Source: an uncultured Planctomycetaceae bacterium
GTDB lineage: Bacteria; Planctomycetota; Planctomycetia; Pirellulales; PNKZ01
NCBI GenBank assembly: GCA_964652155.1
Contig: CAZZBK010000008.1
Coordinates: forward strand, 15,261 to 79,260
Length of the DNA: 64,000 nt
Direction of reading: 5' to 3'
Shown one piece after another: positions 24,887 to 58,505 of this stretch. Under the pieces are notes generated by a model. That model did not search any database. It was not told the DNA's origin and saw only the letters and a program-made list of their open reading frames with translations. Position 1 is the stretch's first letter. Every line of letters starts with the position of its first letter. Both the position numbers and the translations under genes were made by a program.

Positions 24887-24925
24887 GACCTATTCTGACG
24901 GCGACAAGTTGCCGGCTTGGGGAGG

Positions 24926-27086: not shown

Positions 27087-27126
27087 GGTACGTCTGGAGC
27101 CTCAAGAAGCATGTTGTAAATCAGGA

Positions 27127-28149: not shown

Positions 28150-28331
28150 GACAAGAACTCGCAATGCGGAATATGGTCAGACCAATTTAATTCTAGTGAT
28201 AGTCTAGGGTTCTGTCGAGGCGATCGCTATTTAGGGCGAGCAGAAAAATGACCGGAAATGAACGCGAATCCACGGAAATGGGAGAGGAGATTGGAGTTTG
28301 AAATCGATTTCGTCTGGTTCATGGGCGTTTA

Positions 28332-32292: not shown

Positions 32293-32519
32293 CGCAACCT
32301 CCTCCGAAAAAGTCGACGCAGCTTGACTGATTCTTACATCGGCTCGGACACGCAACGTCTCGCCAGAATCCGCTCGCGGGGCCGGATATTAACCGGCGGC
32401 GGTCGAGTGTGCCGACGTTATCAATTCTATCGGTCATTTCCATTGCACAAGCGACCCTTGCGTGGTCGAAACCTATCTACAGACGGATTTTGCTCGCATC
32501 GCAGGGAACGTCGACAGCC

Positions 32520-36647: not shown

Positions 36648-37397
36648 CTACTTGTCGAGGTACGTCACGAACGTGCGTCCCCACCAGCCAACTTGCATGT
36701 GCGGCTCGAACTTGAAACGGCTCCGTTTCTCGAACTCGCGGAAAGCCTTGGCGGGCCCCGTGACCGGCGAGCCTTTGTAGCCGACAAAATACTCGTCCAG
36801 ATAGAGGATCGTTCCTTCTTGCAGGAACGGCTCGATGAAATTGAACACCGGTACCGCCGACTCGTATAAGTCGCAGTCGACATTGATCAGCGACGCCTTG
36901 ACCCCTTGGGAGAGCATTTTTTGCTGCAAGTCGGTCGTCAGGCTGTCCTGATAAAAGCCTTTGACCGTGTGCACGTGATCGACATAAAGGCCGTGCTCGC
37001 GGATCAACTTCATGAAGCTCGCTTCCGAAGTGGATAACGCACCAGGCACGTAGCTGGTCACGCCCGTGGGCAATTCATGTTCCGGGAGTCCTTCGAAGCT
37101 GTCGAACGCGTAAAACCGCATGACGTCGAGTTGGTGCCGTCGCGCTTCGGTGAGCGCCATGCGAAACGTGCGGCAGCGATGGCAGCCGAACTCGAAATAA
37201 TCGCCACCAACTTCGAGCGACGAGATGAAGTCGAACACGTTGACAAAGAAGGCAAGTCGCTGGGAAATGCGATTGCCTTGATTGTAAATGATTTCGTCAT
37301 TTTTGCTCCAATTCGCGAGCTGTTCGCCATTGGCAATTTCGACCCAAGGTTCTTCTCGCAGACGGCGGATCGCGCTGGTGTCATTGAACTGGTTCAT
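36648..37397 (-). CDS. TylF/MycF-like O-methyltransferase (macrocin-O-MT family)
   Basis: GDYFEFGCHRCRT and INVDCDLYES metal-binding motifs are characteristic of the TylF family. Confidence 0.75.
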   Translation of the reverse strand: MNQFNDTSAIRRLREEPWVEIANGEQLANWSKNDEIIYNQGNRISQRLAFFVNVFDFISSLEVGGDYFEFGCHRCRTFRMALTEARRHQLDVMRFYAFDSFEGLPEHELPTGVTSYVPGALSTSEASFMKLIREHGLYVDHVHTVKGFYQDSLTTDLQQKMLSQGVKASLINVDCDLYESAVPVFNFIEPFLQEGTILYLDEYFVGYKGSPVTGPAKAFREFEKRSRFKFEPHMQVGWWGRTFVTYLDK

Positions 37398-37486
37398 AAA
37401 AGCTTATCTCCAAGCATCTGCAATTTAAGGAACACGTATGATTCAACGGCGCGTCAAGCGACGGTTGCCAGACATGTGCTGCCGTC

Positions 37487-38341
37487 TCACGGCCGCGCCA
37501 TAATGTAATTGGCCAGGCTTGTGCCTCTTCCGGTGGGAATGATCTCTTTGAGCTTCTCAACGTATGCGCGAGATTTGAGCAACGCGTATAACTCGATGTG
37601 TGAGTCGAGCGCCAAATCCAACTCGATATGAATCTCATTGATCGTGCGAAGCGACCGCTCCGCGCCGCGAATGACACTCAACTCGTTACCATCGACATCA
37701 ACCTTGAGTTTGGTGGGCGTAGGCAATTTGAACTGCTCGATAGCGTCGTCCAGCGTCATGACCAGCACGTCGATCCTGCCCGCAATTTCGCTTCCCGGGT
37801 TGATGTACGGGGAGGGCTGATGCACGCTGTGCAGCGCGTCGCCCTTCGAGATCCCTTTGAGGTAGAGCGTGTCCAGGGTCGTAACATCTCCCAGCGCCAA
37901 GCAAAGCGGCGTGCAATTCGCTGAAATCCCGTTGAGGAGCACGTTGTCGTAAAAAAGTTGGGCGTTGTTCATTTCCGCCTCGAATCCGAACGCTCGCACG
38001 CCCCGCTTGGCTGCATACAGGCTGTACGTACCGATATTCGCGCCGATATCGTAAAAGCAGTCATCGCCACTAAACCCGTCAATCCAATGGATGATGCTGG
38101 GTTCGAGCGTCTCGGCTTCCATCGCGCGCCAAAGCAACCGGCCATGACCGGTGCGAAAGCGCAGCTTGACACCACTTTGAAAAGAGGTCTCAATCTGCGG
38201 ATCGAGGCACTGAATGAATTCGTTGCTGAATCGATTCCGGCCGTTCAGTCGCAATACGCCGATGATAGCCCGCGCAAACCAGCGATACAGCCGGATATTC
38301 GGTGTCAATACAAAGGTCGTCTGCTGTGATGGAGTATTCAT
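37487..38341 (-). CDS. FkbM family methyltransferase
   Basis: FYDIGANIGTYSLYAA...AFGFEA pattern. Confidence 0.8.
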   Translation of the reverse strand: MNTPSQQTTFVLTPNIRLYRWFARAIIGVLRLNGRNRFSNEFIQCLDPQIETSFQSGVKLRFRTGHGRLLWRAMEAETLEPSIIHWIDGFSGDDCFYDIGANIGTYSLYAAKRGVRAFGFEAEMNNAQLFYDNVLLNGISANCTPLCLALGDVTTLDTLYLKGISKGDALHSVHQPSPYINPGSEIAGRIDVLVMTLDDAIEQFKLPTPTKLKVDVDGNELSVIRGAERSLRTINEIHIELDLALDSHIELYALLKSRAYVEKLKEIIPTGRGTSLANYIMARP

Positions 38342-38435
38342 TATGCCAGCGGTGTCAAGAGATATTCACGGTGGACGACAAGTGAGACCCATAAAGCAAT
38401 TGCATGGATACAGGGTTTATCAACTCCCCCATCGG

Positions 38436-39422
38436 TCAATCTAAATATAACGAATACGCCATCGGCTCGGGTGCGAGGGAGCCTAACTGTTCACACAATC
38501 CAGCCAAATTGGGCATCTGCGACGAGATCGCCACGACATCGGTATAACCCCACGGTCGTCGCGCCACGTCCTGGATCGTTTGCACGTAATTTTGCGGCGT
38601 GATTCGGTTGAACACGAACGGATGCGGAATATAGCCCACGTCGAACAGCGCATACGTGTTGAGTAACTCGGCAAAGAGTTGCTGCATGTCTTGCTGGGCC
38701 GCGTGAAACTCGATTGCAAAGGCGTGCGGATAATTGATGCCGCTCTGCAACACATCGGCCACAATTCGCCGTTCCAGATTTTCGGTGTCGAGCTTGATAA
38801 ACGCGCTGCGCACCTCCTGCTCTCGCATGAAGGTCGACAGTCGGCCCGATTGGACGATCGTATTGGCTTGCGCGCCGATGCTGGCCGACGACGAGTCGCT
38901 ATGCTCGGGTCGTTGATAAAACGTCAGAAATCCATCATAGTCTGAAACCGCTTGCGGCACCCACTGCACCCACCGCTCCAACCCGTTCGCTTGAATGTTA
39001 TAGGGGATGAGTTCGCCCGAGACCGACGGATCAAAGCAAAACACGCGCCCGGCATGCCCGAGCGTGCGAAAGAAATTGGCATAACGCATGCCCACGTCAC
39101 CCACAAACGCGCCAACGTCCAAGAAGTCGACGCTCAGCCCGTGCCGAATCATGTGCCAGAGTATCAGATAGAGCCCATGCCGCGCTGCGTTCACCCGATC
39201 CAGATTCTCGAACGACACGGGACTGCGCGCATAGCCGCGACTAGCGACCTCGCGGTAAAATCCGTCGATGGGAAACCGCTTACAGGCCTCGGGGACCGAG
39301 ATGCGATAGAGATTGTCGGCGGCGAGCATAAATGCCTTGATATCGCCCAGATTGACAAAGTCGACCCCTTCGGCCGCAAACCAGCGGTTCGGCAAGGCAT
39401 CGGACTTAGGTGAGCCGTTCAT
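38436..39422 (-). CDS. FkbM-like methyltransferase
   Basis: FLDVGAFVGDVGMRYANFF...VFCFDPS pattern. More divergent than the neighbour. Confidence 0.65.
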   Translation of the reverse strand: MNGSPKSDALPNRWFAAEGVDFVNLGDIKAFMLAADNLYRISVPEACKRFPIDGFYREVASRGYARSPVSFENLDRVNAARHGLYLILWHMIRHGLSVDFLDVGAFVGDVGMRYANFFRTLGHAGRVFCFDPSVSGELIPYNIQANGLERWVQWVPQAVSDYDGFLTFYQRPEHSDSSSASIGAQANTIVQSGRLSTFMREQEVRSAFIKLDTENLERRIVADVLQSGINYPHAFAIEFHAAQQDMQQLFAELLNTYALFDVGYIPHPFVFNRITPQNYVQTIQDVARRPWGYTDVVAISSQMPNLAGLCEQLGSLAPEPMAYSLYLD

Positions 39423-39483
39423 GGGATCTCCGGAAATGAATGGTGTTCAAAAGGCATGTTGGCGACAGCGAGCCTCGTGGTCT

Positions 39484-40707
39484 TCATGCTTGGCTTGCCA
39501 TGCATTGGTAAAATTCACCCAATCGTTGGGATACGCCCTGGATATCAACGGCTGAAAACCGGTCGAGCGAGTACTCAAACTGGTTGTTCATGGCGCGCTG
39601 TAGCACGCTTCGCGGATCACGAAAGAACGACGCATCCGCGTTCACGACACCGGTGCCATAGCGACGAGCCAAGGAGTGCTGGAAACGTTGCCCAGGGTGA
39701 TGAATCACGCCGATCCCCGCTGAGATAAAATCAGCCACGCGCGACGAACCACAGCCCTCAATCGCCTCAGGCGCGATGTTGTCGAACGGTTCTTCCATTG
39801 CGAGTCGATCCGTGACCGCCGTGCCATAATCATAGCGCGTCAGCATCCGCCAGTAATCATCATCATAGACTTGGTCTTCAATGTGAAAATACGGCGTCAT
39901 ATATTGCAAGCGATAATAATCGGTCGCGTCAGGGTGACCCTGGAACTGATGCAAGTTGAAGTAGAGATGAACATGGATTTGATGTGCGCTGAGAATCTGG
40001 AACACACGCAACATGCTGCAATCGCCGCCGCCAACCCAGCCGATGCTGACGACATGGATCTCGCCCGGTGTATGCGGTTTCCGATGCGGTTCAATGCCCT
40101 CGGGCAAATGCCACAGGGGGTCATGCAAGAAGATACTGCGACGAGGTCGTTCGTAGCCCCGCTGTCGAATGAGGTACCGAATGCGCAGGTCGCGATACAC
40201 GAAGCCGTCGGCATTCGCAATGCACCACCGTTCCAGCATGTGACGCTGTATCGGCTCGTTCTTAAACTCACTACAAGGGTCATAAATATCCAGAATCACC
40301 GGCTTGGTCTTGTACGTCAAATACAAAGCGGCCTGATCGCCAAACGGCGTGAACAAATGCACGATCGGACCAGGAAACAGCCATTGTGCCAGCAGCAACA
40401 GCAGATGATTCTGCACGACGTGAGCAATATGAAAATGATCGCGAACATTAAATTTCGGCTGGTTCAGGGTCACCAAGATCGGCGTCCAGCCCGCCTGACG
40501 TGCGGCCTCCGCCAAGCGAATCTCTCGGCTATGGGTCACGATGGACAAGAACAAGACCGATCGGGCTCGCACCTCGGGGGGGAGCGAAGCAAACGACTGA
40601 ACCAACTGCGGACAAGCCTGTTCGAGCACCGCGCGCGCAAATTCCGCGCGGCCCTCAGTTGGTATTTGAGGGAGCAAAACTTCCAGCGGCTGGCCGTTAA
40701 CAATCAC
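39484..40707 (-). CDS. Hypothetical protein (407 aa), possible GT-B-like fold; no family recognised
   Basis: Its GTG start overlaps the upstream stop (GTGA at 40704-40707), so it is co-translated with the sugar genes. No motif I can name. Confidence 0.6.
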   Translation of the reverse strand: MIVNGQPLEVLLPQIPTEGRAEFARAVLEQACPQLVQSFASLPPEVRARSVLFLSIVTHSREIRLAEAARQAGWTPILVTLNQPKFNVRDHFHIAHVVQNHLLLLLAQWLFPGPIVHLFTPFGDQAALYLTYKTKPVILDIYDPCSEFKNEPIQRHMLERWCIANADGFVYRDLRIRYLIRQRGYERPRRSIFLHDPLWHLPEGIEPHRKPHTPGEIHVVSIGWVGGGDCSMLRVFQILSAHQIHVHLYFNLHQFQGHPDATDYYRLQYMTPYFHIEDQVYDDDYWRMLTRYDYGTAVTDRLAMEEPFDNIAPEAIEGCGSSRVADFISAGIGVIHHPGQRFQHSLARRYGTGVVNADASFFRDPRSVLQRAMNNQFEYSLDRFSAVDIQGVSQRLGEFYQCMASQA

Positions 40708-41816
40708 TTGAGCTTCTCGGCGATGTCAAAGGCCTGGGCAATGCAGTCGTCGATGTCGATGTAGCGGTAGCTGCCGGCCCGACCAATCGAGAAGACCCTC
40801 TCGGGCATCAGGTCGAAATACTTCTTGGCCAGCGCCCGCTCGCTTTTGATCGGCATGGCATAGTGCTTGCCGTTCATCGAAGGAAACTCGATGCCGATGA
40901 GCGTCGTCGGCGACTTATGCTGAGTGAACTTTTTGTACTCGACAATCCGTTTGTATTTTTCCTGGCCCGAGTAGTACAAAAAGAACACGTCGTCGGGAAA
41001 GCATTGCTCCATCGGCAGCACGATCGGGTGGAAGTCGAGTCCGACGAATCTCAGTTCACCGAAGCAATACTCGAAGAGAATGTCCGGTGCGATCGTGTTG
41101 ATGACCACGTCGTAGGTTTGCCATTCTCCTTTGAGCTTGACGCGACGTTGGGGGATGTCGTACTGCTCGATCTTCGTGGCCAGATGAACCTTGACATCGG
41201 CCGTTGAGATGCCGAAGTAATCGTCGTAGCCGTTGGCCGCGTAGGGGTAGGCCGTGATGCGGTCGGTAAAGCTGGCCCGGGCACCCGTGTGCAGCAGCGC
41301 ACCTTTGCTGGTCCAGGCCGGGACGGCATCGTCCAGCTCTTTGTTGCTGTCGACGAGCCACATCTTTTTATTGTAATACTTGCCAAACTTCTCATAGAGC
41401 GTGGGCCCCACCGATCCCAACCAGTAATCTTCGAGATTGGCCGAGGCCTCGCCGGTCGTCGCGGCCGCCAACTCGCGCTTAATCTGGTCGCGGTCGGGCA
41501 TTCGCTCGATGTCGTCGACGTGCATCGGAAAGTTGTAAAACTCTTGGTCGCGCTCCACATAGGTGAGAAACACATGCTTCAGCGGTCTGAGCGGCACATA
41601 CTGGTTCAGGAAGTGAAACAGCCGCTCGTCTTCCGTCAGAAAGTGTCGCGGGCCGAACGTGTGGGGATGCCCGCCGTACCATTGCGTGCGCACTCCCGCG
41701 CCCAGGAACGGGGCAGCCTCGACCAGCGTGACGTCCCAGCCGCCTTGCAACACCAACTGATGGGCGGCCGCGCAGCCGGCAAATCCACCGCCAATAACCA
41801 ATGCTGTTTTTTTCAT
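40704..41816 (-). CDS. UDP-galactopyranose mutase-like FAD enzyme (nucleotide-sugar pyranose/furanose mutase)
   Basis: ALVIGGGFAGCAAA FAD fold. C-terminal GRAGSYRYIDIDDCIAQAF parallels the Glf motif GRLAEYKYYDM. Size 370 aa. Confidence 0.7.
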   Translation of the reverse strand: MKKTALVIGGGFAGCAAAHQLVLQGGWDVTLVEAAPFLGAGVRTQWYGGHPHTFGPRHFLTEDERLFHFLNQYVPLRPLKHVFLTYVERDQEFYNFPMHVDDIERMPDRDQIKRELAAATTGEASANLEDYWLGSVGPTLYEKFGKYYNKKMWLVDSNKELDDAVPAWTSKGALLHTGARASFTDRITAYPYAANGYDDYFGISTADVKVHLATKIEQYDIPQRRVKLKGEWQTYDVVINTIAPDILFEYCFGELRFVGLDFHPIVLPMEQCFPDDVFFLYYSGQEKYKRIVEYKKFTQHKSPTTLIGIEFPSMNGKHYAMPIKSERALAKKYFDLMPERVFSIGRAGSYRYIDIDDCIAQAFDIAEKLK

Positions 41817-41857
41817 GCGTGACTCGTTCTCGATCGATTGCGACTCAACTCAAAACC

Positions 41858-42520
41858 TTAATCGGGCATTAAAAACCACCAGCAGTCGCCGGTGTAGCCC
41901 ACCTCGTTGAACAATTGCTGCCACTCGTCGGTGCTCATGTACGTTTTGCACGTGACAATCCAGCTCTCCAGCCGGGCTTTTTCGGTCGGCGTGCGATACG
42001 CGTCGACCATCACAAACGAGTGGCCGCGCGACACACGCTCGATCTCGCGCAGCGCCTGTTTGCACTCATCGAGCGGCAAATTGTGAATCGTGTTGATGGC
42101 CGTCACCAGGTCGAACGATTTCGATTCGTAGGGCAATTCATGGGCGCTCCCCACACGCAGATACGGACGCATGTCCTCCAGACTGTTGGCAATGGCGTAG
42201 TCAGAAATATCCAGCCCCGCCACGGTCGCCGCCGGCATTAACTCCTGGAAGTCGTGCAGCATGAACCCTTTGGCACAGCCAATGTCGAGAATCCGAGCGT
42301 CGGGCTTGAGCTGGTAGTGGTCACGAAATCGCTTCACCGTCGCTTGCCAAAAGCGCGGATGGTAGTTGTAGCCACCGTAGCCGTACAGGCGGTCGCCATC
42401 GAAATAGTCTTTGCCGTACAGGCGCGAGATCCGCCGCACCTCATCCGACACCGCCTCGCTTCGCTGCTCGACCACGCGTTTCGACTGCGGGTATTGGTCC
42501 ATCAGGTTGATTTCAGCCAC
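41858..42520 (-). CDS. Class I SAM-dependent methyltransferase
   Basis: ILDIGCAKGFMLHDF (motif I) and FDLVTAINTIHNL. A GTG start at 42520 lies 9 nt after GGAGG (42530-42534). Confidence 0.85.
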   Translation of the reverse strand: MAEINLMDQYPQSKRVVEQRSEAVSDEVRRISRLYGKDYFDGDRLYGYGGYNYHPRFWQATVKRFRDHYQLKPDARILDIGCAKGFMLHDFQELMPAATVAGLDISDYAIANSLEDMRPYLRVGSAHELPYESKSFDLVTAINTIHNLPLDECKQALREIERVSRGHSFVMVDAYRTPTEKARLESWIVTCKTYMSTDEWQQLFNEVGYTGDCWWFLMPD

Positions 42521-42526
42521 AGGGCA

Positions 42527-43447
42527 TTACCTCCGCACAATCGTCTGAAAAACGGTTTCGGCGTCAATGCCATGCGCCTTCCACAAGTCTTGCGGCGTGC
42601 CGAAGACGTGGATGAACTCGTCCTTGAGCGAGAACGTGACCAAGTCGCACGTGGCGCGATACTCGTAGGCCAGCGCCTTGGCCTGAGCCGCCAGGCCGGC
42701 CCGCTCACTGTGCTCTTCGATGATCACGACCCGCGAGTACTTTTGATAAATCTCGCGCAACCGTGACGAGTCGAGCGGTTTGATCGTCGGCACCGAAAAG
42801 AGCGCGGCCGACTGTTTCAGTTCTTTCTCGACTCGCGCGGCAATCTCGCTGGTCATCTTCATGATCGGGCCATACGACAGAAACGCGATGTCGCTGCCCG
42901 GCTTGATCAAGCGAATCTTGCCGAACGTGAATGGCTCGACCGCGTCGGCCGTGAGGGTCGGCTCCCCCGCTTTGCCCAACCGCAAGTACGTTGGCCCGGG
43001 ATGATCGGCACACGCCCAGGCGGCGGCGACCGTTTCAAGCGGATCGCACGGGGCAAGAATGCTCATGTTGGGCAATCCGCCCATGATGGCAATGTCTTCT
43101 TGCGCATGATGCGTGCCGCCGAGGGTCGAGTAGGCCAACCCGCCGCCAATCCCCACGACGGTCACCGGCAGATTCTGATAACACAAGTCGACGCGAATTT
43201 GCTCGAACGGACGGTACAGCGAGAACGTGGCAATCGAGTAGGCAAAGGCCTTGCAGCCGCGCATCGCGAGCCCAGCGCATGCGCCGATCATCGATTGCTC
43301 GGCCACGCCTACGTTATAAAACCGATCGGGAAATTCCTCGCGGAACTTGGCCATGCTGCCGGCCGGAGAGATGTCGGCCACCACGATGAACACCTTGGGA
43401 CGCGCCTTGGCAATGTCATACAACGTGCGAGAGAATGTGTCGCGCAT
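42527..43447 (-). CDS. Transketolase, C-terminal (pyrimidine-binding) subunit
   Basis: VGVAEQSMIGACAGLA and GGTHHAQEDIA motifs. ATG at 43447. Confidence 0.88.
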   Translation of the reverse strand: MRDTFSRTLYDIAKARPKVFIVVADISPAGSMAKFREEFPDRFYNVGVAEQSMIGACAGLAMRGCKAFAYSIATFSLYRPFEQIRVDLCYQNLPVTVVGIGGGLAYSTLGGTHHAQEDIAIMGGLPNMSILAPCDPLETVAAAWACADHPGPTYLRLGKAGEPTLTADAVEPFTFGKIRLIKPGSDIAFLSYGPIMKMTSEIAARVEKELKQSAALFSVPTIKPLDSSRLREIYQKYSRVVIIEEHSERAGLAAQAKALAYEYRATCDLVTFSLKDEFIHVFGTPQDLWKAHGIDAETVFQTIVRR

Positions 43448-43449
43448 GA

Positions 43450-44274: not shown

Positions 44275-44310
44275 GGCAGATCGATCTCAAAAAGGGCTAC
44301 GTCGTTTGAT

Positions 44311-50943: not shown

Positions 50944-51052
50944 GGGGACTCGTCTGAGATGAAAGGGGTTAGGGATGATAGGGTTCGGTTCGACTCGCCA
51001 GGGCGAGTTCAAATCGTGCTGCGAAATTTGATCGAGCGCCGCGAGGTCGACG

Positions 51053-51793
51053 CTAGCGACGGCTCCGCGCGGTGCAATCGAGCGTGTAGCCCGCCCGTTG
51101 GGCATCGTCGAAAAACATGTGGACCGTTTCGAGCGAGTAGCTGTCGAGGTCCTTGCCGACGAGCGGCAGCTTGGCGAGCACGTCGGGGGTCACGGTGATG
51201 ACCTGGCAACCGATCGCGTCGGCCTGGAAGATGTTGAGCAACTCTCGGGGGCTGGCCCAGATCAGTTCCCAGTTGGGCTGCGGTGCCAGCAGAGCGACCG
51301 TCTGTCGCATCATGGGAATCGGGTCGCGGCCCGTGTCGGCCACGCGTCCCGCAAAGACCGAAATGTAACACCGCACGGCCGGGTTCAGTGCCGGCAGCAC
51401 GCTTTCGACCTGCGCCAGGGTCATGATCGCGGTGATGTTGACCTGCACGCCATCGGCCGCCAAGCGTTGGATGAGGGGCACACACGACTCGCCGCGAGTG
51501 TTTGTGATCGGGATCTTGACGTAGACGTTTTCGCCCCAAGAGGCAATCTCGCGAGCTTGTGCTTCCATCTCCTCCCAATCGTCGCAGAGCACTTCCAACG
51601 AGATGGGTCGCCCATGAATTCGTGCGAGCACCTGCTTGGCAAATGCTCGGTAATCGACGACCTGCGCCTTGCGCATGAGCGTGGGGTTGGTCGTGAATCC
51701 TTGGATGAGCGGGTTGGCGGCCATCTTCTCAATCACCGGCAACTCAGCGCTGTCGGTAAAGATTTTGACCTTCAATGTGTTGAGCAACGACAT
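51053..51793 (-). CDS. Transaldolase family protein (Fsa/TalC-type)
   Basis: GFTTNPTLM, VYVKIP (Schiff-base Lys) and ISVFAGRVADTG motifs. Confidence 0.85.
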   Translation of the reverse strand: MSLLNTLKVKIFTDSAELPVIEKMAANPLIQGFTTNPTLMRKAQVVDYRAFAKQVLARIHGRPISLEVLCDDWEEMEAQAREIASWGENVYVKIPITNTRGESCVPLIQRLAADGVQVNITAIMTLAQVESVLPALNPAVRCYISVFAGRVADTGRDPIPMMRQTVALLAPQPNWELIWASPRELLNIFQADAIGCQVITVTPDVLAKLPLVGKDLDSYSLETVHMFFDDAQRAGYTLDCTARSRR

Positions 51794-52012
51794 GCGGCAG
51801 ACCTTGTGGATGAGACGAGCCGGACGGTGGTCCTGGTGGCTGAACTCAGCATGCGAAGCGGAACCGCTCGCGTGAGACTGAACTCAACGGTATTCCTTTT
51901 AGGCTAATTACGCATTCTTGCCGCAGAAGTGCGCGAAAGCGAGTAATGAGCAGAATGAAATATTATCGTGCTGGAAAAATCGGTGAAATCGGAAAACTTG
52001 ACGGGATCGGAA

Positions 52013-52588
52013 CTAATTCGCGCCGTGCGGCTTTAAGCTCCACGGCCCACGCGCCACCAGCGCGGCGTTTTGCAGGATCCAATCCGTAGCCTCGGTGAGC
52101 GTTTTCACGCGGGCATCGGCATGGTCGGGCCGACGCTCCTGGTACTCGGTTTGGATCCAAATTGTTTTGCAGCCCGCAGCCCGGCCTGCGTCGATATCGC
52201 GCCAGCGGTCGCCCACCAGAAACGAGCAGGCCAAATCGATCTCGGCCTGCTGGGCAGCGGCGAGCAACATGCCGGGCTTGGGCTTGCGGCAGTCGCACTC
52301 GTCCGCGTCGACATGGTAGCAAACCCGGATGTCGTCGAGCGGCAACGTGTGCCGCAATCGCTCGTGCATCGCCTCGACCACGGACTGCTGTTGGAGGCCG
52401 GTGCGGACATCGGGCTGATTCGTCACCACGACGAGCCGAAAGCCCGCCACCTTGAGGCGACGCAACGACTCGGCCACATCGTCGTACAGTTGAAACTCGT
52501 CGAGCGTCGCGGGGGGGTAAGGCTTCCCCTGTCGAATGATCGCCCGATTAAGGACCCCATCTCGGTCAAGGAATACGGCACGGTTCAT
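52013..52588 (-). CDS. gmhB: D-glycero-D-manno-heptose 1,7-bisphosphate phosphatase (HAD-IIIA)
   Basis: VFLDRDGVLN, VVVTNQ and CDCRKPKPGM motifs. ATG at 52588; the 339-aa track ORF is an artefactual extension. Confidence 0.88.
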   Translation of the reverse strand: MNRAVFLDRDGVLNRAIIRQGKPYPPATLDEFQLYDDVAESLRRLKVAGFRLVVVTNQPDVRTGLQQQSVVEAMHERLRHTLPLDDIRVCYHVDADECDCRKPKPGMLLAAAQQAEIDLACSFLVGDRWRDIDAGRAAGCKTIWIQTEYQERRPDHADARVKTLTEATDWILQNAALVARGPWSLKPHGAN

Positions 52589-53184
52589 GGCGCGGCCGAT
52601 TCCCATTTGGTGGCCTGGGCCTGGAGCCGCGGATGGCTCACCAGACCGTGCCAAATGACGGCCTGAAACGCCTCGCTGTGGGGCGTGATATGCTTGGGAT
52701 CGACCGTGGGGACGACGATGACTTCGTCGCCGACTTGCTTCGTGTAGCCGCCATCGCGACCGACGATGCCGAAGATTTTCATTCCGCGCTGCTTCGCTTC
52801 TTCGAGTGCGCGAATCAAATTGACGCTGATATTGCGCTCGGCGTTGCCACCGCCGACCGAGAGCACAAAGACCGCGTCGTTCGCCGAGGCCCGGCTGGTC
52901 CGCAGCCAAGCGGCGAAAATCGTCTCCCAACCCTCGTCGTTCGCGCGAGCCGTCAGCTCCGAGACATTGTCGCAGGGGGAGTACGTCTCGATGCCAACGA
53001 TCTTGCGAAAGTCGTTGACCGCATGACTGCAATTGGCCGCGCTACCGCCAACCCCCAAAAAGAACAGCCGTCCTTGCCGCTGCCGCAAGTCAGCCAACGC
53101 CGCGGCGAGACGCTCCATGGCGTCGGCATCAATCGCTTGGGCAATCTGGCTGGCCTGATCCAAGTAGATTCGACTATGTGACAT
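52585..53184 (-). CDS. gmhA: Phosphoheptose (sedoheptulose-7-P) isomerase, SIS domain
   Basis: FFLGVGGSAANCSHAVNDF and VFVLSVGGGN motifs. ATG at 53184; ATGA overlap with gmhB. Confidence 0.88.
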   Translation of the reverse strand: MSHSRIYLDQASQIAQAIDADAMERLAAALADLRQRQGRLFFLGVGGSAANCSHAVNDFRKIVGIETYSPCDNVSELTARANDEGWETIFAAWLRTSRASANDAVFVLSVGGGNAERNISVNLIRALEEAKQRGMKIFGIVGRDGGYTKQVGDEVIVVPTVDPKHITPHSEAFQAVIWHGLVSHPRLQAQATKWESAAP

Positions 53185-53548
53185 GAGGTCCAACAGCCAG
53201 AAGAAACGAAGCCAAGATGAGATGCCGCGCGCGCTGCGAGTCGTCGCTGCATTGGGCCAAAAACAGGCATTTTGACGCAAACCAACAGCAACGACGGGCT
53301 ATGCAGTTGAATATAGCCGATCATGTCGCGCGGTCAAACTTTATGCCTCCGAACCCGTCTGCAGGACAGCGACACTGTCCGTCGGGCATCCCACAATCCT
53401 CACAGCCGGCGCAGTCCTCCCAACCGGTCGACTCGCGACAACTTCATGCCCTGATTAAGGTCAATTCGATCGACAAACTCTTTTGCCCGCCGCGAGTCGT
53501 GTAATACTGGAAGAATCCCTTCTCGTTTCACTCGCTCTGTCACAGTCC

Positions 53549-54421
53549 ATGACACCTGGCCTGATTGTCATCGGCAAGAACAGTTACATCGGCGGCAAGC
53601 TCGTCGAGTATGCCGAGCGCTGGGCCCTGCCGTGCCTCGCCTGGGGCTCGAGCGATTGCGATTTCTTGAACATCGAGCAGGTGCGAGAAGTGTTCAGCGC
53701 CTTGCCTCGGCAACCCTATCAGGTCGTGTTTCTGTCGGTGGTGAATAAGCATCTGGGCAATTCGTCTGCGACGTTCGACCAGAACGTGCTTATGGTACGC
53801 CATTTGATCGAAGGGCTGAGGCTGCTCGATGTGCGGTCGCTCGTGTATTTCAGTTCGGCCGACGTGTTTGGCCATCAGCCGCAACTCCCGATCAGCGAAT
53901 GGACCCCGCGCAGCCCCAGTTGTTGGTATGGGTTGTCGAAGTCCGTGTGCGAGTGGATGATGCTCGACGCGCATGACCTGAAGTGTCCGGTGACCGCGCT
54001 GCGCATACCGGGCATTTACGGCTTGGGACGCAACGAGCGGAGCATCATTCGCGGCATGGTCGAGCGTTGGGCTCAAGGTGAAACGGTCAAGCTGACGGGG
54101 GGCGGTCGAGCCTTGCGAGATTTTGTACACGTCGACGACGTCTGCCGGATCGTCGTCGAACTGTTGCGGCAACGCTATCATGGACCGCTCAACGTGGCGA
54201 CCGGACACAGCCGCTCGATGCTCGACGTGGCGCGGCTCGTTGCGCACGTTCTGAATATCGAACCCCGTTGGGAGTTGCTGCCAACGCCGAGTCGCCGCGA
54301 TTTTGATTTGGTGTTCGATCCCGCTCGACTGCAAGCGGTTGCCGGTGAGGTTGGACTGCGAGACGTGGCCGACAGTCTCGGCGAGTATCGACAGCTCTAT
54401 AACTCGTTGAATGTGAATTGA
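53549..54421 (+). CDS. Extended-SDR nucleotide-sugar reductase/epimerase (RmlD-like)
   Basis: YGLSKSVCE (YxxxK) and RDFVHVDDV motifs. Atypical Gly-rich motif GKNSYIGGKL. ATG at 53549. Confidence 0.75.
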   Translation: MTPGLIVIGKNSYIGGKLVEYAERWALPCLAWGSSDCDFLNIEQVREVFSALPRQPYQVVFLSVVNKHLGNSSATFDQNVLMVRHLIEGLRLLDVRSLVYFSSADVFGHQPQLPISEWTPRSPSCWYGLSKSVCEWMMLDAHDLKCPVTALRIPGIYGLGRNERSIIRGMVERWAQGETVKLTGGGRALRDFVHVDDVCRIVVELLRQRYHGPLNVATGHSRSMLDVARLVAHVLNIEPRWELLPTPSRRDFDLVFDPARLQAVAGEVGLRDVADSLGEYRQLYNSLNVN

Positions 54422-54450
54422 TCCTACGACAAGCAAATCTTGTGGAGTGA

Positions 54451-55671
54451 GTGATCGTGATGGTGGCCAAAGAACAGTTAGCCCTCTATGGCGGACCCAA
54501 AGTCCGGTCGACCAAGATGCCCATTCGCCAGGCGCTCGGCGAGGCCGAAGAGGCTGAGTTGATGAACGCAATTCGGTACTACCGCAACTTGGGTGGCGAC
54601 CCCGGCTACGCAGGCCATTATGAGCAACTGTTCTGTGACGAGTTCTCGAAGTTTCTCGGAGGCGGTTATACCGATGCGGTCTCGGCCGGCACGGCAGCCA
54701 TCTACGTGGGACTCAAGGCCTTGCAGTTGCCACCCCAGAGCGAGATCATCATCTCGCCGGTGACCGACAGTGGGCCGCTGGCCTGCATTATCGAACAAGG
54801 GCATATACCCGTCGTCGCCGACGCGGCCGTGAACAGCTACAACATCGACGTCGAGCAGTTTCTCCGCCGCGTCACGCCTCGCACCAAGTGCCTGCTGGCC
54901 GTGCATGCGGCCGGCGAGCCATTGGAGATCGACAAGATCGTCGCCGCCGCCCACGAGCGGGGCATCAAGGTGCTCGAGGATTGCAGCCAGGCGGTCGGCG
55001 CCGTGTGGAACGGACACTATGCCGGCACGGTCGGCGATATCGCGGCCTTCTCGACCATGTACCGCAAGAATCTCGCCGCCGGGGCCAGCAGCGGACTGCT
55101 CTTCACCAAGGATCATGATTTGTTCCGGCTGGCGCAAAGCTACGCCGATCGAGGCAAGCCGGTGTGGCGTACCGATCTCGATTTGCGCAACCCCGGCTAT
55201 GCATTCTTTCCGGCGTTGAATTGGAACACCGACGACCTCTCATGCGCCATCGGCCTCGCCAACCTGCGCCGCCTCGCCGAGACCAACGAGCGACGCCGCG
55301 CCTTCCTCAAGGCCCTGCTGCCGCGGCTCGTGGCCAATTCGAAAGTCTGCACCCCCTACGCCTTCCACGACGGTCACGCGCCGTTTTACTTTCCCATTTT
55401 CGTCGACACCAACAAAATTACCTGCGACAAATCGACCTTCGCCGAGGCGGTGATGGCCGAGGGAATTGGGCTCGGCGTGCATTATGGCTGCTTGGTCTCC
55501 ACTTGGCCCTGGGCCCAAGAGTATCTCAGCGACGACTTCATTACGACCAATGCAATCAGCACCCGCGACCGCTGTTTTCATCTGTACCTGAACGAAAAGT
55601 ATGGACCGAGCGAGGTCGAAGACACGCTCTCGGCCATCCTTAAAGTCGAAAGCTATTTCCTCAAACGATAG
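54451..55671 (+). CDS. DegT/DnrJ/EryC1/StrS family PLP-dependent sugar aminotransferase
   Basis: Family-wide pattern with a PLP Lys candidate in AFSTMYRKNLAAG. Start ambiguous (GTG at 54451 or ATG at 54460). Confidence 0.85.
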   Translation: MIVMVAKEQLALYGGPKVRSTKMPIRQALGEAEEAELMNAIRYYRNLGGDPGYAGHYEQLFCDEFSKFLGGGYTDAVSAGTAAIYVGLKALQLPPQSEIIISPVTDSGPLACIIEQGHIPVVADAAVNSYNIDVEQFLRRVTPRTKCLLAVHAAGEPLEIDKIVAAAHERGIKVLEDCSQAVGAVWNGHYAGTVGDIAAFSTMYRKNLAAGASSGLLFTKDHDLFRLAQSYADRGKPVWRTDLDLRNPGYAFFPALNWNTDDLSCAIGLANLRRLAETNERRRAFLKALLPRLVANSKVCTPYAFHDGHAPFYFPIFVDTNKITCDKSTFAEAVMAEGIGLGVHYGCLVSTWPWAQEYLSDDFITTNAISTRDRCFHLYLNEKYGPSEVEDTLSAILKVESYFLKR

Positions 55672-55707
55672 TTGTGTCGTCTCAAACGATCCGTGTCTGT
55701 TTTATGG

Positions 55708-56544
55708 ATGAGTTTGCCCATGTCGCTCGTTCCATCATTTACCAATTCGCAAGATCAACAGCTAAGCGAAACGTTCCTTCGCCAGGGTTATGTACTCCGC
55801 GACGTCGACAACCGGGCGGCCCTCGACGCCCTGCGGCACGAAGTCGTGAAAATCGTCTGCGAGCATCTGCAACTGCCGTTGCCCGAGGACGATGGCCAGT
55901 TTCTCAACCACGTGCATGAACACGTCGGCGTGGCCAAGGTCAACGAGTTGCGGCTGACCGTGTTCAATCGCATGAACGCCCAGCCGTGGTTTCGTCCCAC
56001 CTACTACGCGCTCGCCAAGTCGACGATCGACACGCTGGTCGGGAACGAATTGGCGATGCAGAACAAGATCAATTTCTCGGTACAGATGCCCAACGATCAG
56101 ACCTCGACGCTGGGCATTCATGCCGACACGTGGTCGGCCGAGACCCCTTTTCAAGTCGTCTGCTGGCTGCCGCTCGTCGACGTCTTTGAAACCAAGGCCA
56201 TGTACATACTGCCGCCACAGTACAATCGCGAGGTGGTCAAGAATTTCAAACAACTCACCGCCGACGGGGGAAGCGCCCAACTGTTCGACACGTATCGCGA
56301 TAAGTTCATTTGGGTCAGCGTTCCCTATGGCCAGGTGATGGTCTTCTCCCCCATCTTGCTGCACGGCAACATCGTCAACGTGACCCGCGAGACCCGCTGG
56401 TCGTGCAACGTCCGCTTCACCGGTTTGTTCACCCCATACACGAGCGACGAGAAGCGGCTGGGGACGTTCTATTTGCCCATCACGACCAAAGTGGTCAGCC
56501 GCGTCGGGATGAATTACCGCGAGCCCGGAGGTTTCAATGAATAA
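55708..56544 (+). CDS. 2OG-Fe(II) oxygenase-like protein (carbohydrate-cluster type)
   Basis: Putative facial triad HxD in LGIHADTW, a distal His in PILLHGN, and a downstream Arg in TRWSCNVRF. ATG at 55708. Confidence 0.65.
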   Translation: MSLPMSLVPSFTNSQDQQLSETFLRQGYVLRDVDNRAALDALRHEVVKIVCEHLQLPLPEDDGQFLNHVHEHVGVAKVNELRLTVFNRMNAQPWFRPTYYALAKSTIDTLVGNELAMQNKINFSVQMPNDQTSTLGIHADTWSAETPFQVVCWLPLVDVFETKAMYILPPQYNREVVKNFKQLTADGGSAQLFDTYRDKFIWVSVPYGQVMVFSPILLHGNIVNVTRETRWSCNVRFTGLFTPYTSDEKRLGTFYLPITTKVVSRVGMNYREPGGFNE

Positions 56545-57007
56545 CGACATCCCCACTTCTCCGCAGCGGATGGGCCTGCGCGGCTATGTGACCCATCACG
56601 AGTTTGCCGGCATGCGCATCCCGGCCCCGGTGCAGAACTTGGTCCTGCGCGACTATGCCGCCCGCAACAAACTCGTCTTCGAGCTCTCGATCGGCGAGTA
56701 CTTTTTTCCCAACTGCCACGTGCAACTCGACGGCATCTTGCGCAACCTCGACAACTTCATTGGCGTCGTGATGTGCAGTTTGTTCATGCTCCCCAAGAAT
56801 GCCGAGCACCGCCACCGCGTGTACCAGGAGTTCATCCGTCACGACGCGGCCTTGCACCTAGTGTTCGAGAGTCTGGTCATTCGTGGCGAAGCCGACATCG
56901 ATCGGGCCGAGGACATCATTCGCTTTCAGAGTGTGTTGAGCCAATGCCCAACGATGATTCCGCGCGAGTTGCTGCCGCCGCTCGAACCGATCGATACATT
57001 CACCTAA
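56537..57007 (+). CDS. Small uncharacterised carbohydrate-cluster protein (recalls the LIC12192-type 'sporadic carbohydrate cluster' family)
   Basis: 156 aa. LRGYVTHHEFAGMRIPAPVQNLVLRDYA opening. The ATG overlaps the upstream stop (ATGAATAA). Family assignment is from memory only. Confidence 0.55.
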   Translation: MNNDIPTSPQRMGLRGYVTHHEFAGMRIPAPVQNLVLRDYAARNKLVFELSIGEYFFPNCHVQLDGILRNLDNFIGVVMCSLFMLPKNAEHRHRVYQEFIRHDAALHLVFESLVIRGEADIDRAEDIIRFQSVLSQCPTMIPRELLPPLEPIDTFT

Positions 57008-57024
57008 CGAGGCGCTGGCCGACC

Positions 57025-57510
57025 ATGAGTGGCGAAGTCACAGTACGCGAGGGAACCCTCGACGATTCGCGCGAAATCTGGCAGTGGTGGAACGACCCAC
57101 TGACGCGACAAATGATGCGCAAGAACGACCCAGTGCCCTGGGAAGAGCACGAGCCGTGGTTTGCCGGGGTGCTCAACGATCCGAATCGTATTTTGTGCGT
57201 GGGACTATGCGACGGCGAGAAGCTTGGCGTCGTGCGTTTCGACCTGCGGCAGCCCAACGAATACGAAGTGAGCATCAACCTCAACCCAGCCCAGCGCGGC
57301 AAGGGATACGCGCCGCAGATTTTACGCAAATCGATCGAGCATTTGCTCACGATCCGCAAGGTCAACAAACTGTGGGCCGGCTGCAAGAAAATCAACGACG
57401 CGTCACGCAAGTCATTCGTCCGCGCCGGCTTCGTGCTCACACCCAACGAGGCCTACGAGCAAATCGATCACTTTTACTGCGAGTGGCACGAGACCCCGGC
57501 CAGAGCTTAA
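57025..57510 (+). CDS. GNAT family N-acetyltransferase
   Basis: 161 aa. QRGKGYAPQIL acetyl-CoA-binding loop (Q/RxxGxG/A). ATG at 57025. Confidence 0.8.
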   Translation: MSGEVTVREGTLDDSREIWQWWNDPLTRQMMRKNDPVPWEEHEPWFAGVLNDPNRILCVGLCDGEKLGVVRFDLRQPNEYEVSINLNPAQRGKGYAPQILRKSIEHLLTIRKVNKLWAGCKKINDASRKSFVRAGFVLTPNEAYEQIDHFYCEWHETPARA

Positions 57511-57513
57511 CTT

Positions 57514-58440
57514 TTAGTGCATCTCCGAGTCGCACGAACCGATGCCCGGCCGGTAAAAGTTGAACTGTACGTTGGGATGGTCGGCCAGCAAGCTCATCGG
57601 CACCGCCGAGTCGGGTAGCCGCTTCGAGATCATCAGCGTCGTGAGCCGCTGTCCGAACGGATTGTCGTGCGCGCCGGCGTGCCAGATCGACACCTTCTCG
57701 GCTTGCCATGTCTCATGCGGTCCCACGCTGATCGCTTGCTGCGGCACGTTCGTCACGACGCCGCCGCCACTCGTGCGCGCGTTCTGAATGATCGTCATGG
57801 GGTGCAGTTCAACGACGCGGGTGGTGAGCTTGCGGTACTCGGCCGGTGGCGGCGGATTGTCTTTCCAGGGCCCGACTCGTTTTGGCGGATCGTTAAAGGC
57901 CCAATGCTTCACTTCGCCTTGGCCCCCTTGCATGACGAGGCAGCGCGCTTGCTTCCACGAGGCCATGTACTCGGTGGGGTCGAAACCCGGAAAATGCAAA
58001 TGCTCTTTCGGCATGCGTAGTTCGGGCCGAATGCGATTGAAGCACAAATCCATGTCGGCCTTGGCAAAGCTGAGCGGGAAATCGAGCGGTGCCTCGCGAC
58101 CCCCGACGACCCATTCGTCCATGCCCCAGAAATGTGCGTGCCGCAAATCCAAATTCAACTCGTTGACCAGCCGCGCCACGAGCGGCAACTGCTCGGTGGG
58201 ACCGATCGGTCCGCAAATCCCCGTCGGGTTGTCGCTCGTCGCTTGCCGCCAAGCGGTGATGTACTCGAGCGCCTCGGCCAGATAAAAGTCTTCGAGCGTG
58301 TCGTAAAACACCACGTTGAAGCCCGGGCGCGACAGGGCCAGCAGATCGTCGGCCGTGAGCCGGGCCGCGTCATCGAGCAACGCGCGGTCCAAAGTCGTGT
58401 AGTCCCACCAGTCGGCGCTAATTTTGCTCAGAGGTCGCAT
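57514..58440 (-). CDS. Glucosamine-6-phosphate deaminase/6-phosphogluconolactonase (NagB) superfamily protein
   Basis: [12 protein letters not shown]...HFWGMDEW pattern. ATG at 58440. Convergent with the GNAT gene, with a 3-nt gap. Confidence 0.7.
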
Positions 58441-58447
58441 GACAAGA

Positions 58448-58480
58448 GTTTTCGGTTCGAGGTTTTCGGTTTTCGGTTTG
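58448..58480. repeat. TTTTCGG short tandem repeat tract (GTTTTCGGTTCGAGGTTTTCGGTTTTCGGTTTG)
   Basis: Read directly. Lies between the hydrolase stop (58506) and the NagB-like start (58440). Related to the tract at 126-161. Confidence 0.6.
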
Positions 58481-58505
58481 AATTCGAGGCGGAGCGCATG
58501 GCGTG

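Follow-up and report, generated by a model that had tools for sequence, protein, structure and literature searches.

The 64,000-nucleotide stretch analysed here (the window; contig CAZZBK010000008.1 of an uncultured Planctomycetaceae bacterium, positions 15,261 to 79,260) carries a 22-gene cell-surface sugar cluster arranged in two divergent arms. Based on the map of open reading frames (ORFs) and their translations, 17 genes lie on the minus strand (36648-53184) and five on the plus strand (53549-57510), and one further convergent minus-strand ORF (57514-58521, or starting at 58440 if read from its second methionine) brings the number to 23. The arms flank a divergent intergenic region of 364 bp (53185-53548, GC content 0.55), as a sequence-only reading of this DNA had described; within it, a sigma-70-like promoter match on the minus strand (53337-53310, 10 of 12 positions) faces the minus arm. 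The cluster is real and its genes are not chance ORFs, because the E-values of the family matches reach 1e-142 and the synteny is kept in about 80 other genomes. The locus is modular, comprising a core module (42.5-53.2 kb), an amino-sugar plus arm and a separable low-GC accessory block.

Nearly all of the domain calls made from the sequence alone were reproduced with Pfam and NCBIfam. The families confirmed are SIS_2, HAD-IIIA (with the motif CDCRKPKPG), a CTP_transf_like and PfkB fusion, TAL_FSA, Transketolase_N, Transket_pyr/Transketolase_C, four extended short-chain dehydrogenases/reductases (SDRs), GFO_IDH_MocA, three UDPG_MGDP_dh domains, DegT, GNAT and GLF, together with four methyltransferases (one TylF, two FkbM and one class I). 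The minus arm had also been taken for a single translationally coupled operon. All seven start/stop overlaps on which that claim was built are exact, namely GTGA at 40704-07 and 48936-39, ATGA at 45192-95, 46472-75, 47395-98 and 52585-88, and an 8-nt overlap, ATGCCTAG, at 49930-37, all on the minus strand. However, they define three coupled blocks instead of one, and the remaining genes are separated by 219, 109, 94, 89, 61, 41 and 36 nt. The first block joins the SIS and HAD genes; the second joins SDR_b, SDR_c, the nucleotidyltransferase-kinase fusion, the Gfo/Idh/MocA gene (Gfo), a gene of the UDP-glucose dehydrogenase (UGDH) family and SDR_d; and the third joins a gene resembling UDP-galactopyranose mutase (UGM) to a 407-aa ORF.

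The distribution of the system was determined by scanning one genome per species with the fusion protein. At least 538 species genomes encode a relative, and more than 7000 homologues were found, thousands of them with the same reversed architecture (described below) at 68-82% identity. The best 80 of these at least 538 genomes come from about 12 phyla at 64-97% identity (mostly 64-75%) and include Planctomycetota, Acidobacteriota, Verrucomicrobiota, Omnitrophota, Elusimicrobia and alpha-, beta- and gamma-Proteobacteria, as well as Bdellovibrionota, Campylobacterota, Myxococcota, Chloroflexi, Bipolaricaulota and Binatia. The closest fusion protein, with 97% identity, belongs to the metagenome-assembled genome (MAG) of an uncultured Planctomycetaceae bacterium (locus L005), and one cultured isolate, Azospirillum rugosum IMMIB AFH-6 (L074), is found among the best 80. 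In the plasmid collection, the proteins nearest to the fusion are PfkB proteins at only 30% identity, and no annotated close relative was found there.

The 23 window proteins were compared with 84 loci, which we designate by L numbers. The block SDR_b-SDR_c-fusion-Gfo-UGDH-like-SDR_d is present in 71-80 of the 84, with median identities of 46-70%, and is followed in frequency by the SIS-HAD-transaldolase unit (51), the class I methyltransferase (46), the pair of transketolase-like genes (24-27), DegT (13), the UGM-like gene (5) and the 2-oxoglutarate (2OG) oxygenase with the LIC12192-family gene (4, from three different lineages). The 407-aa ORF and the FkbM and TylF genes occur in two loci, within the window's own lineage only. 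The core module varies little in content from phylum to phylum and appears to be horizontally mobile. GT2 genes occur in 15 of the related loci and genes for Wzm/Wzt-like transporters (ABC-2/ABC ATPase) in 5-7; the product is therefore most likely part of a glycan of the O-antigen, capsule or S-layer type. In the same comparison, ORF clusters 16, 17, 20, 23, 24, 28 and 31 were discarded as conserved families, being antisense artefacts of high-GC genes.

Judged by sequence, the front end of the core is clearly of the GmhA/HldE/GmhB type. Its first gene (52585-53184; this and all other genes of this arm are on the minus strand) encodes a SIS-domain ketose-phosphate isomerase, a divergent GmhA-like protein (PF13580 SIS_2, E 9e-10) with a median identity of 70% over 51 loci. 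Its closest solved relative is the GmhA of B. pseudomallei (E 3e-11), and it scores 57 bits against the gmhA equivalog TIGR00441, for which the cut-off is 209. When aligned to 5ltz and 2xbl, the protein keeps the His of GGSAA..H, has Asp opposite the catalytic Glu of GmhA, and aligns poorly over the C-terminal His region. Overlapping the SIS gene by ATGA, the next gene (52013-52588) encodes a GmhB-like HAD-IIIA sugar-bisphosphate phosphatase, which is above the cut-offs of the HAD-IIIA domain model TIGR01662 (99 bits) and the histidinol-phosphatase domain model TIGR01656 (128 bits) and reaches 127 bits against GmhB NF006506 (cut-off 178). The third gene (51053-51793) encodes a short TalC/FSA-type transaldolase (TIGR02134, 327 bits with a cut-off of 282; PF00923, E 1e-41) that is most closely related, among solved structures, to the short transaldolases from Thermotoga and Thermus. 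Of the 51 loci with SIS and HAD genes, most have the transaldolase gene directly beside them, and the three travel as a unit, even when inverted.

The fusion protein (47395-48939) is HldE-like, with a nucleotidyltransferase at its N-terminus (PF01467, residues 34-123) and a PfkB kinase at its C-terminus (PF00294, residues 224-494). This order is the reverse of that of HldE, in which the kinase comes first and the adenylyltransferase second. Its top domain matches are rfaE_dom_I (128 bits) and rfaE_dom_II (91 bits), and it scores 149 bits against HldE NF008454 (cut-off 521). The top solved relatives are the heptose 7-phosphate kinase HldA (4e84) and 5x9q, deposited as a 'putative cytidylyltransferase' and presumably HldC. 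In three loci the nucleotidyltransferase-kinase seemed at first to be fused with Gfo, but this was an artefact of ORF calling, caused by an open upstream frame in high-GC DNA.

The GmhA/HldE/GmhB route proposed from the sequence alone is thus borne out in its best-matching families and solved relatives, which are of the heptose type, but none of the three proteins reaches the equivalog cut-off and the domain order of the fusion is reversed; for these reasons, heptose is an inferred substrate. Together with the exchange of Glu for Asp and the presence of a transaldolase of its own beside the SIS and HAD genes, the same observations make the chain length less certain; we consider a C7 backbone somewhat more likely than not and a C8 backbone unlikely.

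Downstream of the transaldolase gene, two extended SDRs of the epimerase type precede the fusion gene. SDR_b (49930-50943; PF01370, E 7e-35; motif STSSVYG...YNKYK) is of the epimerase/oxidoreductase type; its start at 50943 was set by comparison with homologues of 332-334 aa, and its median identity is 70% in 75 loci. SDR_c (48936-49937; PF16363, 208 bits; PF01370, 201 bits; motif ASSSCYG) is GalE/LegB-like, scores 169 bits against galE, which is under the cut-off, and has a median identity of 70% in 79 loci. As read from the translations, both lack the Asp/Glu dyad of 4,6-dehydratases. SDR_d (44311-45195; PF01370, E 1e-33), at the other end of the coupled block, is a reductase-epimerase type resembling GDP-fucose synthase and RmlD; its best NCBIfam match is GDPFucSynFcl (73 bits, under the cut-off), and a homologue is present in 71 loci. 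In 23 related loci (including L006, L007, L008 and L026:14628-15074), a 148-aa NUDIX hydrolase, absent from the window, directly follows SDR_d, and it may hydrolyse or proof-read the nucleoside diphosphate (NDP) sugar.

Between the fusion and SDR_d lie two adjacent and translationally coupled genes. The first encodes a Gfo/Idh/MocA NAD(P) oxidoreductase (46472-47398; PF01408, PF22725) with its EKP motif and is found in 80 of the 84 loci, each time immediately after the fusion gene. The second (45192-46475) encodes a UGDH-family protein with all three UDPG_MGDP_dh domains (PF03721, PF00984 and PF03720), which passes the nucleotide-sugar dehydrogenase subfamily model TIGR03026 (201 bits, cut-off 190). 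The UGDH-like label of the earlier annotation is therefore sound at the level of domains, but the catalytic Cys is missing: in the alignment to 4a7p and 3gg2, the motif GGSCFPKD reads GGNLERD, and Asn takes the place of Cys in 78 of the 78 homologues recovered, while the active-site Lys, Asn and Asp align. The second oxidation of UGDH runs via a thiohemiacetal and a thioester of this Cys; by that mechanism, therefore, the protein cannot produce a uronic acid, and the simplest activity left to it would be a two-electron oxidation that yields a carbonyl.

After SDR_d comes a split enzyme dependent on thiamine diphosphate (ThDP). The N-subunit of this transketolase-like pair (43450-44274; PF00456, E 3e-29) has the N-chain of the C. 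hydrogenoformans split transketolase as its closest solved relative (6yak, E 1.5e-50), and, when aligned to 6yak and to human transketolase, it retains the GDG/N ThDP motif and the His residues of the donor site. The C-subunit (42527-43447; PF02779, PF02780) matches 6yaj (E 6e-47). In transketolases, the THxG...GEDGxxH segment carries the His that binds the acceptor phosphate and the Asp that binds the acceptor C2-OH. Where canonical enzymes have THxG..GEDGxxHQ, the window protein and each of its 24 close homologues have GIGGG..YSTLGGTHH, with Gly and Leu in place of the acceptor-binding His and Asp. The two subunits score 211 and 161 bits against NF004559 (cut-off 488), and 108 and 47 bits against TIGR00232 (cut-off 682).

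We surveyed this position in the 48 loci with at least 8 kb of sequence downstream of the fusion gene. A ThDP enzyme occupies the slot in 40 of them, and it is transketolase-like in 18, E1alpha/beta-like in 16 and similar to acetolactate synthase (ALS) and YerE in six; the slot is thus shared with ALS-like or E1-like enzymes in 22 related loci, and the same methyltransferase usually follows. This class I S-adenosylmethionine (SAM) methyltransferase (41858-42520; PF13649 and PF08241, E ~1e-16) is found in 46 loci, typically right after the ThDP enzyme. What transketolase-like, E1-like and ALS-like enzymes have in common is the movement of an activated two-carbon (C2) unit to a carbonyl; the E1-like and ALS-like enzymes cannot supply sedoheptulose-7-phosphate. 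In O-antigen biosynthesis, the ThDP enzymes YerE, ErwE and MMAR_2332 build acyl-branched sugars together with a reductase and, in some cases, a methyltransferase (PMC9306805). The order in the window, with SDR_d directly upstream, then the transketolase-like pair and the class I methyltransferase, is a neighbourhood of the YerE type.

The sequence-only reading had assigned the pair to a dedicated supply of the C7 precursor. We instead read it as a tailoring carboligase, because it lies in the tailoring block, six tailoring genes away from the front end, because its acceptor residues are lost, and because it shares its slot with E1-like and ALS-like enzymes. As a side observation, the Omnitrophota locus (L004/L025:1-9400) has a second, divergent transketolase-like pair (33-42% identity); the region ahead of its fusion gene also encodes a Methyltransf_13 protein resembling C-methyltransferases and two B12-binding radical SAM enzymes, all of which suggests further carbon-carbon chemistry on the same sugar.

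The plus arm opens with a fourth extended SDR, SDR_e (53549-54421; PF01370, E 5e-30), followed by a DegT/PseC-type aminotransferase dependent on pyridoxal phosphate (54451-55671; PF01041, 197 bits), whose cofactor-binding Lys lies in STMYRKN; in L011, L038, L063 and L082, the core operon itself includes a DegT homologue (43-51% identity). The third gene (55672-56544) encodes a PhyH-like 2OG-Fe(II) oxygenase of the TIGRFAM sporadic carbohydrate cluster (TIGR04324, 323 bits, cut-off 150). It has no Pfam match, but the HxD...H...R triad is readable in the sequence; its homologue in L088 has a weak PF05721 PhyH match, and in L079 and L025 the gene directly follows the core. Overlapping it by 8 nt, the fourth gene (56537-57007) encodes a 156-aa protein of the LIC12192 family (TIGR04323, 136 bits, cut-off 55). 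Its AlphaFold2 (AF2) model, with a predicted local distance difference test (pLDDT) score of 85.6, resembles serine recombinases/resolvases only weakly, in the fold of their catalytic domain (E 4e-4, template modelling (TM) score 0.55-0.64, 11-14% identity); as the catalytic Ser motif is absent, we do not regard the protein as a recombinase. The invariant residues of the family include Y17, Q33, R38, C60, C80, H107 and E111. The arm ends with a GNAT N-acetyltransferase (57022-57510; PF13302, 58 bits) that is weakly PseH-like (36 bits, under the cut-off).

The order DegT-2OG-LIC12192-GNAT recurs in L088, beside methyltransferase, transketolase-like, GLF and FkbM genes. A homologue of the UGM-like gene lies inside the core operon in L004/L025 and L074. 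Since DegT, the 2OG and LIC12192 pair and the UGM-like gene are embedded in the core operon elsewhere and occur together in L088, the synteny favours their action on one sugar, the same one that the core would make. The capacity for amination, N-acetylation and methylation noted from the sequence alone agrees with this inventory. The L088 locus (L088:1-5094), from a second lineage, also has a phosphoenolpyruvate (PEP) mutase, a phosphonopyruvate-decarboxylase-like ThDP enzyme, an Fe-dependent alcohol dehydrogenase (ADH) and nucleotidyltransferase fusions, a gene set for decorating the glycan with a phosphonate.

The left end of the minus arm, at 36.6-41.8 kb, is a separable accessory module. 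The GC content is 0.55-0.57 at 36-42 kb and about 0.60-0.65 in the rest of the window, which suggests that the block was separately acquired. It contains a UGM-like flavin-dependent pyranose/furanose mutase, a divergent GLF (40704-41816; PF03275, 105 bits; NAD_binding_8) that scores 105 bits against TIGR00031 (cut-off 304); the 407-aa ORF (39484-40707); two FkbM-family methyltransferases (38436-39422; TIGR01444, 54 bits, cut-off 37.7, with a weak PF05050 match; and 37487-38341; PF05050, 66 bits); and a TylF/Methyltransf_24-type O-methyltransferase (36648-37397; PF05711, 43 bits; PF13578, 31 bits). Homologues of the 407-aa ORF adjoin FkbM and Methyltransf_24 genes in L085, L086 and L087, all without the core, and in L087 a GLF gene is found beside them too. 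In L085, a block of this kind lies beside IS66 transposase genes.

The 407-aa ORF has no Pfam or NCBIfam match and only 13 homologues among 5.8e9 proteins. Its AF2 model (pLDDT 85, predicted TM score 0.84) was compared with the PDB by Foldseek, giving 104 matches at E<=1e-3, and almost all of the best 50 of the 104 are GT-B glycosyltransferases. They include sucrose-phosphate synthase (SPS, 6kih, E 7e-10), PglA, MshA, PimA, HepE and WbnH, with TM scores of about 0.6, and the exceptions among the best 50 (TagF and a 2-epimerase) share the GT-B fold. The conserved motif of the C-terminal domain is GSSRxxD..G and not E..E, and the protein does not belong to the Glycos_transf_1/EX7E group. From the model, the protein is confidently predicted to have a GT-B fold and is a transferase candidate. 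The earlier statement that no glycosyltransferase can be named at the locus must thus be revised. That no export genes are present was confirmed: with Pfam, we detected no glycosyltransferase, Wzx/Wzy, polyprenyl-phosphate transferase or ABC exporter in 23.9-63.8 kb.

From the gene content, families, residue substitutions, predicted fold, synteny and distribution given above, we infer the chemical steps, chain length, nucleotide carrier and acceptor as follows. With moderate confidence, we consider the locus to be a three-module glycan-biosynthesis island for an NDP higher-carbon sugar that undergoes C2 addition. The product is most likely, judging from these sequences, an NDP-heptose, possibly an octose, that is oxidised, C2-extended or branched, aminated, acetylated and methylated. 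The core module would deliver the nucleotide-activated higher-carbon sugar. Its transaldolase would form a ketose phosphate, most simply sedoheptulose-7-phosphate, which the SIS protein would isomerise to an aldose phosphate; the PfkB half of the fusion would then phosphorylate O-1, the anomeric position, the HAD protein would take off the distal phosphate, and the nucleotidyltransferase half would give the NDP-sugar. SDR_b and SDR_c, both of the epimerase type, would reset stereocentres, and Gfo and the Cys-less UGDH-like enzyme would carry out one or more two-electron oxidations to a carbonyl, with no uronic acid formed. To this carbonyl the transketolase-like enzyme would add a C2 unit, as a chain extension if it is a terminal aldehyde or as a C-branch, in the manner of YerE, if it is a ring ketone; SDR_d would reduce the product and the class I methyltransferase would methylate it. 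On the same sugar, the plus arm would perform transamination (DegT), N-acetylation (GNAT) and, probably, hydroxylation (PhyH-like 2OG enzyme). The UGM-like mutase would contract the ring to the furanose form, the GT-B protein would transfer the sugar to its acceptor, and the two FkbM and the TylF-type enzymes would O-methylate, with export and polymerisation presumably encoded elsewhere in the genome.

Several points weigh against this interpretation. A GT-B fold alone is no proof of transferase activity. The UGM-like protein, the DegT arm and the GT-B protein could act on other sugars of a repeat unit, such as derivatives of UDP-Gal or UDP-GlcNAc. Eight of the 48 loci surveyed have no nearby ThDP enzyme and, therefore, C2 addition may be an optional decoration. 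The nearest solved relative of the transketolase-like pair is a functional transketolase, so that, on sequence alone, the pair may have a supply role, and the residues missing from it are presumably E. coli His461 and Asp469, an equivalence based on the canonical motif and the alignment. Finally, the transaldolase passes the cut-off of TIGR02134, an equivalog family regarded as housekeeping transaldolase.

A more specific proposal, which we advance tentatively and hold to be less probable, is that the core leads to a non-ulosonic C9/C10 or C-branched sugar through oxidation of the NDP-heptose (or NDP-octose) by Gfo and the Cys-less UGDH-like enzyme, no further than the aldehyde or ketone, and a subsequent ThDP-dependent C2 step, whose slot would have been filled independently three times, and that this sugar is a common though overlooked envelope component of Verrucomicrobiota, Acidobacteriota, Planctomycetota and many further environmental bacteria.

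To our knowledge, the lincosamide GDP-octose route is the only characterised pathway that unites a transaldolase with a GmhA-like isomerase, a kinase, a GmhB-like phosphatase and a nucleotidyltransferase. The core could be the cell-surface counterpart of that route, which we judge unlikely. The transaldolase would transfer a C3 unit to ribose-5-phosphate to give octulose-8-phosphate (as LmbR); the isomerase, kinase, phosphatase and nucleotidyltransferase would yield an NDP-octose (as LmbN, LmbP, LmbK and LmbO); the SDRs would epimerise it (as LmbM); Gfo and the UGDH-like enzyme would dehydrate the side chain (as LmbZ and LmbL); and DegT would aminate the ketone (as LmbS). The likeness is one of class labels, LmbL being a protein of the UGDH family and LmbZ one of the Gfo family; the kinase and nucleotidyltransferase of the locus are of the HldA/HldC type, whereas those of lincomycin are GHMP and GDP-type enzymes. 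Other features speak for an octose: a transaldolase of its own beside SIS-HAD in a mobile cluster would be odd if the substrate were the ubiquitous sedoheptulose-7-phosphate, the front-end proteins fall well under the heptose equivalog cut-offs, and the adjacent, coupled Gfo and UGDH-like genes include one whose product is unable to make an acid. The transaldolase, however, scores within its presumed housekeeping family, and DegT is present in only about 13 of the 84 loci.

The amino-sugar genes of the lmb cluster are labelled transaldolase, C8 isomerase, kinase, phosphatase, nucleotidyltransferase, epimerase, dehydrogenase, oxidoreductase and aminotransferase (PMC4351081), and in a comparison made at the level of these class labels alone, the enzymes of the locus correspond to them one for one. 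Each step (LmbR, N, P, K, O, M, L, Z and S) has a counterpart of the same reaction type here, the transaldolase is dedicated in both, and in both an oxidoreductase/dehydrogenase pair acts ahead of the aminotransferase. Unlike the lincosamide genes, those of the locus lie in glycan loci of Gram-negative and environmental phyla instead of an antibiotic cluster, have a fused HldE-type kinase and nucleotidyltransferase, and are accompanied by extra SDRs, a ThDP enzyme and methyltransferases.

The model put forward from the sequence alone, in which one NDP-heptose undergoes ordinary ring tailoring, the transaldolase and the transketolase serve only to supply sedoheptulose-7-phosphate, and no transferase is present, now seems quite improbable. 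In its favour, the pair has an intact ThDP and donor site and shares about 45% identity with a functional split transketolase, the transaldolase lies within TIGR02134, the front end is of the heptose type, and the locus has no Pfam glycosyltransferase or exporter. But the pair occurs in only 24-27 of the 84 loci and is replaced in place by enzymes unable to make sedoheptulose-7-phosphate; moreover, the acceptor-site His and Asp are gone, six tailoring genes intervene between the pair and the front end, and the 407-aa ORF has a predicted GT-B fold. Least probable of all is a composite repeat unit, in which the three modules make separate sugars for one polysaccharide (a modified heptose, a galactofuranose-type sugar made from UDP-Gal by the UGM-like enzyme and an N-acetylated amino-hexose from the DegT arm) and only their co-location gives the impression of a single tailored sugar: the occurrence of the GT-B/FkbM/Methyltransf_24 block without the core (with GLF in L087), the curation of TIGR04323/TIGR04324 as a sporadic cluster of their own, the lower GC content at 36-42 kb and the rmlA and rmlD genes just upstream would suit it, but in other phyla the core operon encloses, in one case or another, DegT, 2OG with LIC12192 or UGM, pointing to a substrate in common, the UGM-like protein scores 105 bits where the UDP-Galp mutase equivalog cut-off is 304, and 36.6-58.5 kb holds no separate nucleotidyltransferase for a second sugar.

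Returning to the island for a C2-modified higher-carbon sugar, its logic would be that of a hybrid between a heptose nucleotide-sugar pathway, the lincosamide octose route and YerE-type ThDP branching. By sequence, its proteins fall outside GmhA, HldE, canonical transketolase and uronic-acid-forming UGDH in the strict sense, and its GmhB-like and UGM-like proteins score under the equivalog cut-offs of GmhB and UDP-Galp mutase. With the ADP-L,D-/D,D-heptose pathway the locus has all four reaction types in common, carried out by proteins of the same superfamilies; it differs from it in its scores (57 vs 209, 149 vs 521 and 127 vs 178 bits), in the reversed order of the fusion and in that its genes sit with a transaldolase and at least eight tailoring genes and have spread by synteny-preserving transfer, unlike housekeeping genes of the LPS core. 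In the GDP-heptose pathways of Campylobacter and Yersinia, an NDP-heptose is tailored by SDRs, an aminotransferase-fold enzyme, methyltransferases and, in some, a GLF-type mutase; the products are 6-deoxy and 3,6-dideoxy heptoses of capsules and O-antigens, with heptofuranose in HS:41. In contrast to the locus, these systems use HddA (a GHMP kinase) and HddC (a GDP-transferase) and are not known to have a transaldolase, a Gfo/UGDH-like pair or a ThDP enzyme.

The resemblance to YerE/YerF (yersiniose), ErwE, MMAR_2332 and AviB1/B2 lies in a ThDP enzyme, within an O-antigen-type cluster, that is followed by a reductase and a methyltransferase, and related loci fill the slot with a YerE-like (ALS-type) or an AviB-like (E1alpha/beta) enzyme. 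The window, however, has a split transketolase-like enzyme and no ALS-fold flavin/ThDP enzyme; therefore, the donor would be dihydroxyethyl (glycolaldehyde) instead of pyruvate, and the acceptor a heptose-type sugar instead of a 3,6-dideoxyhexose. Part of the locus had been flagged by the TIGRFAM curators, and the module belongs to the nucleotide-sugar tailoring clusters. As in their sporadic carbohydrate cluster, TIGR04323 and TIGR04324 are adjacent and above the cut-off here; the curators defined that cluster by its neighbourhood, whereas in the window and in L025, L079 and L088 the two genes are attached to a heptose-type core. In the literature searched (sporadic carbohydrate cluster; transketolase/transaldolase/heptose/gmhA clusters), we found no published characterisation of the module or its product.

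The features that set the system apart are its breadth, its conservation, the Cys-less UGDH-like protein and the interchangeable ThDP slot. If our interpretation is correct, one unusually well-conserved module, with 64-75% protein identity across about a dozen phyla and with relatives of its fusion gene in more than 500 species-level genomes, encodes a higher-carbon sugar that has so far escaped characterisation and that would be displayed by seldom cultured bacteria abundant in soil, in freshwater and in association with the gut. It would involve a UGDH-family enzyme re-tooled to halt at the carbonyl and a transketolase-like enzyme working on a nucleotide sugar, and it would offer a testable origin for the lincosamide octose pathway, of which the module could be the evolutionary source. 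The module markers could be used to annotate hundreds of loci now labelled "ADP-heptose synthase" and "transketolase", and A. rugosum IMMIB AFH-6 is a cultured entry point.

The genes around the cluster are of other kinds. The convergent minus-strand ORF at 57514-58521 (335 aa), which lies 3 nt past the GNAT stop, is NagB/lactonase-like, with no Pfam match and a weak nagB match (E 1.7e-4), and among the 84 loci it recurs only in the same-lineage MAG locus L005. An ORF of 335 aa lies at the matching place in L088, but the two have no similarity; the convergent ORF is probably a neighbour outside the system. The left flank encodes a rhomboid protein and a 3-keto-disaccharide hydrolase-like protein and the right flank an S9 peptidase and a P-type ATPase, none of them related to glycan export. 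Further to the left, at 23992-28164 on the minus strand, a group of the sugar-acid utilisation type (a xylose-isomerase-like TIM barrel protein, a short-chain dehydrogenase, a UxaE-like tagaturonate epimerase and a Zn-ADH) is unrelated to the sugar cluster. Just upstream of the cluster are rmlA (31411-32355, minus strand) and rmlD (~33885-34883, plus strand), separated by a SET-domain ORF and a 181-aa ORF with no family match; no rmlB or rmlC was seen nearby. The glycan may include dTDP-rhamnose as a second sugar.

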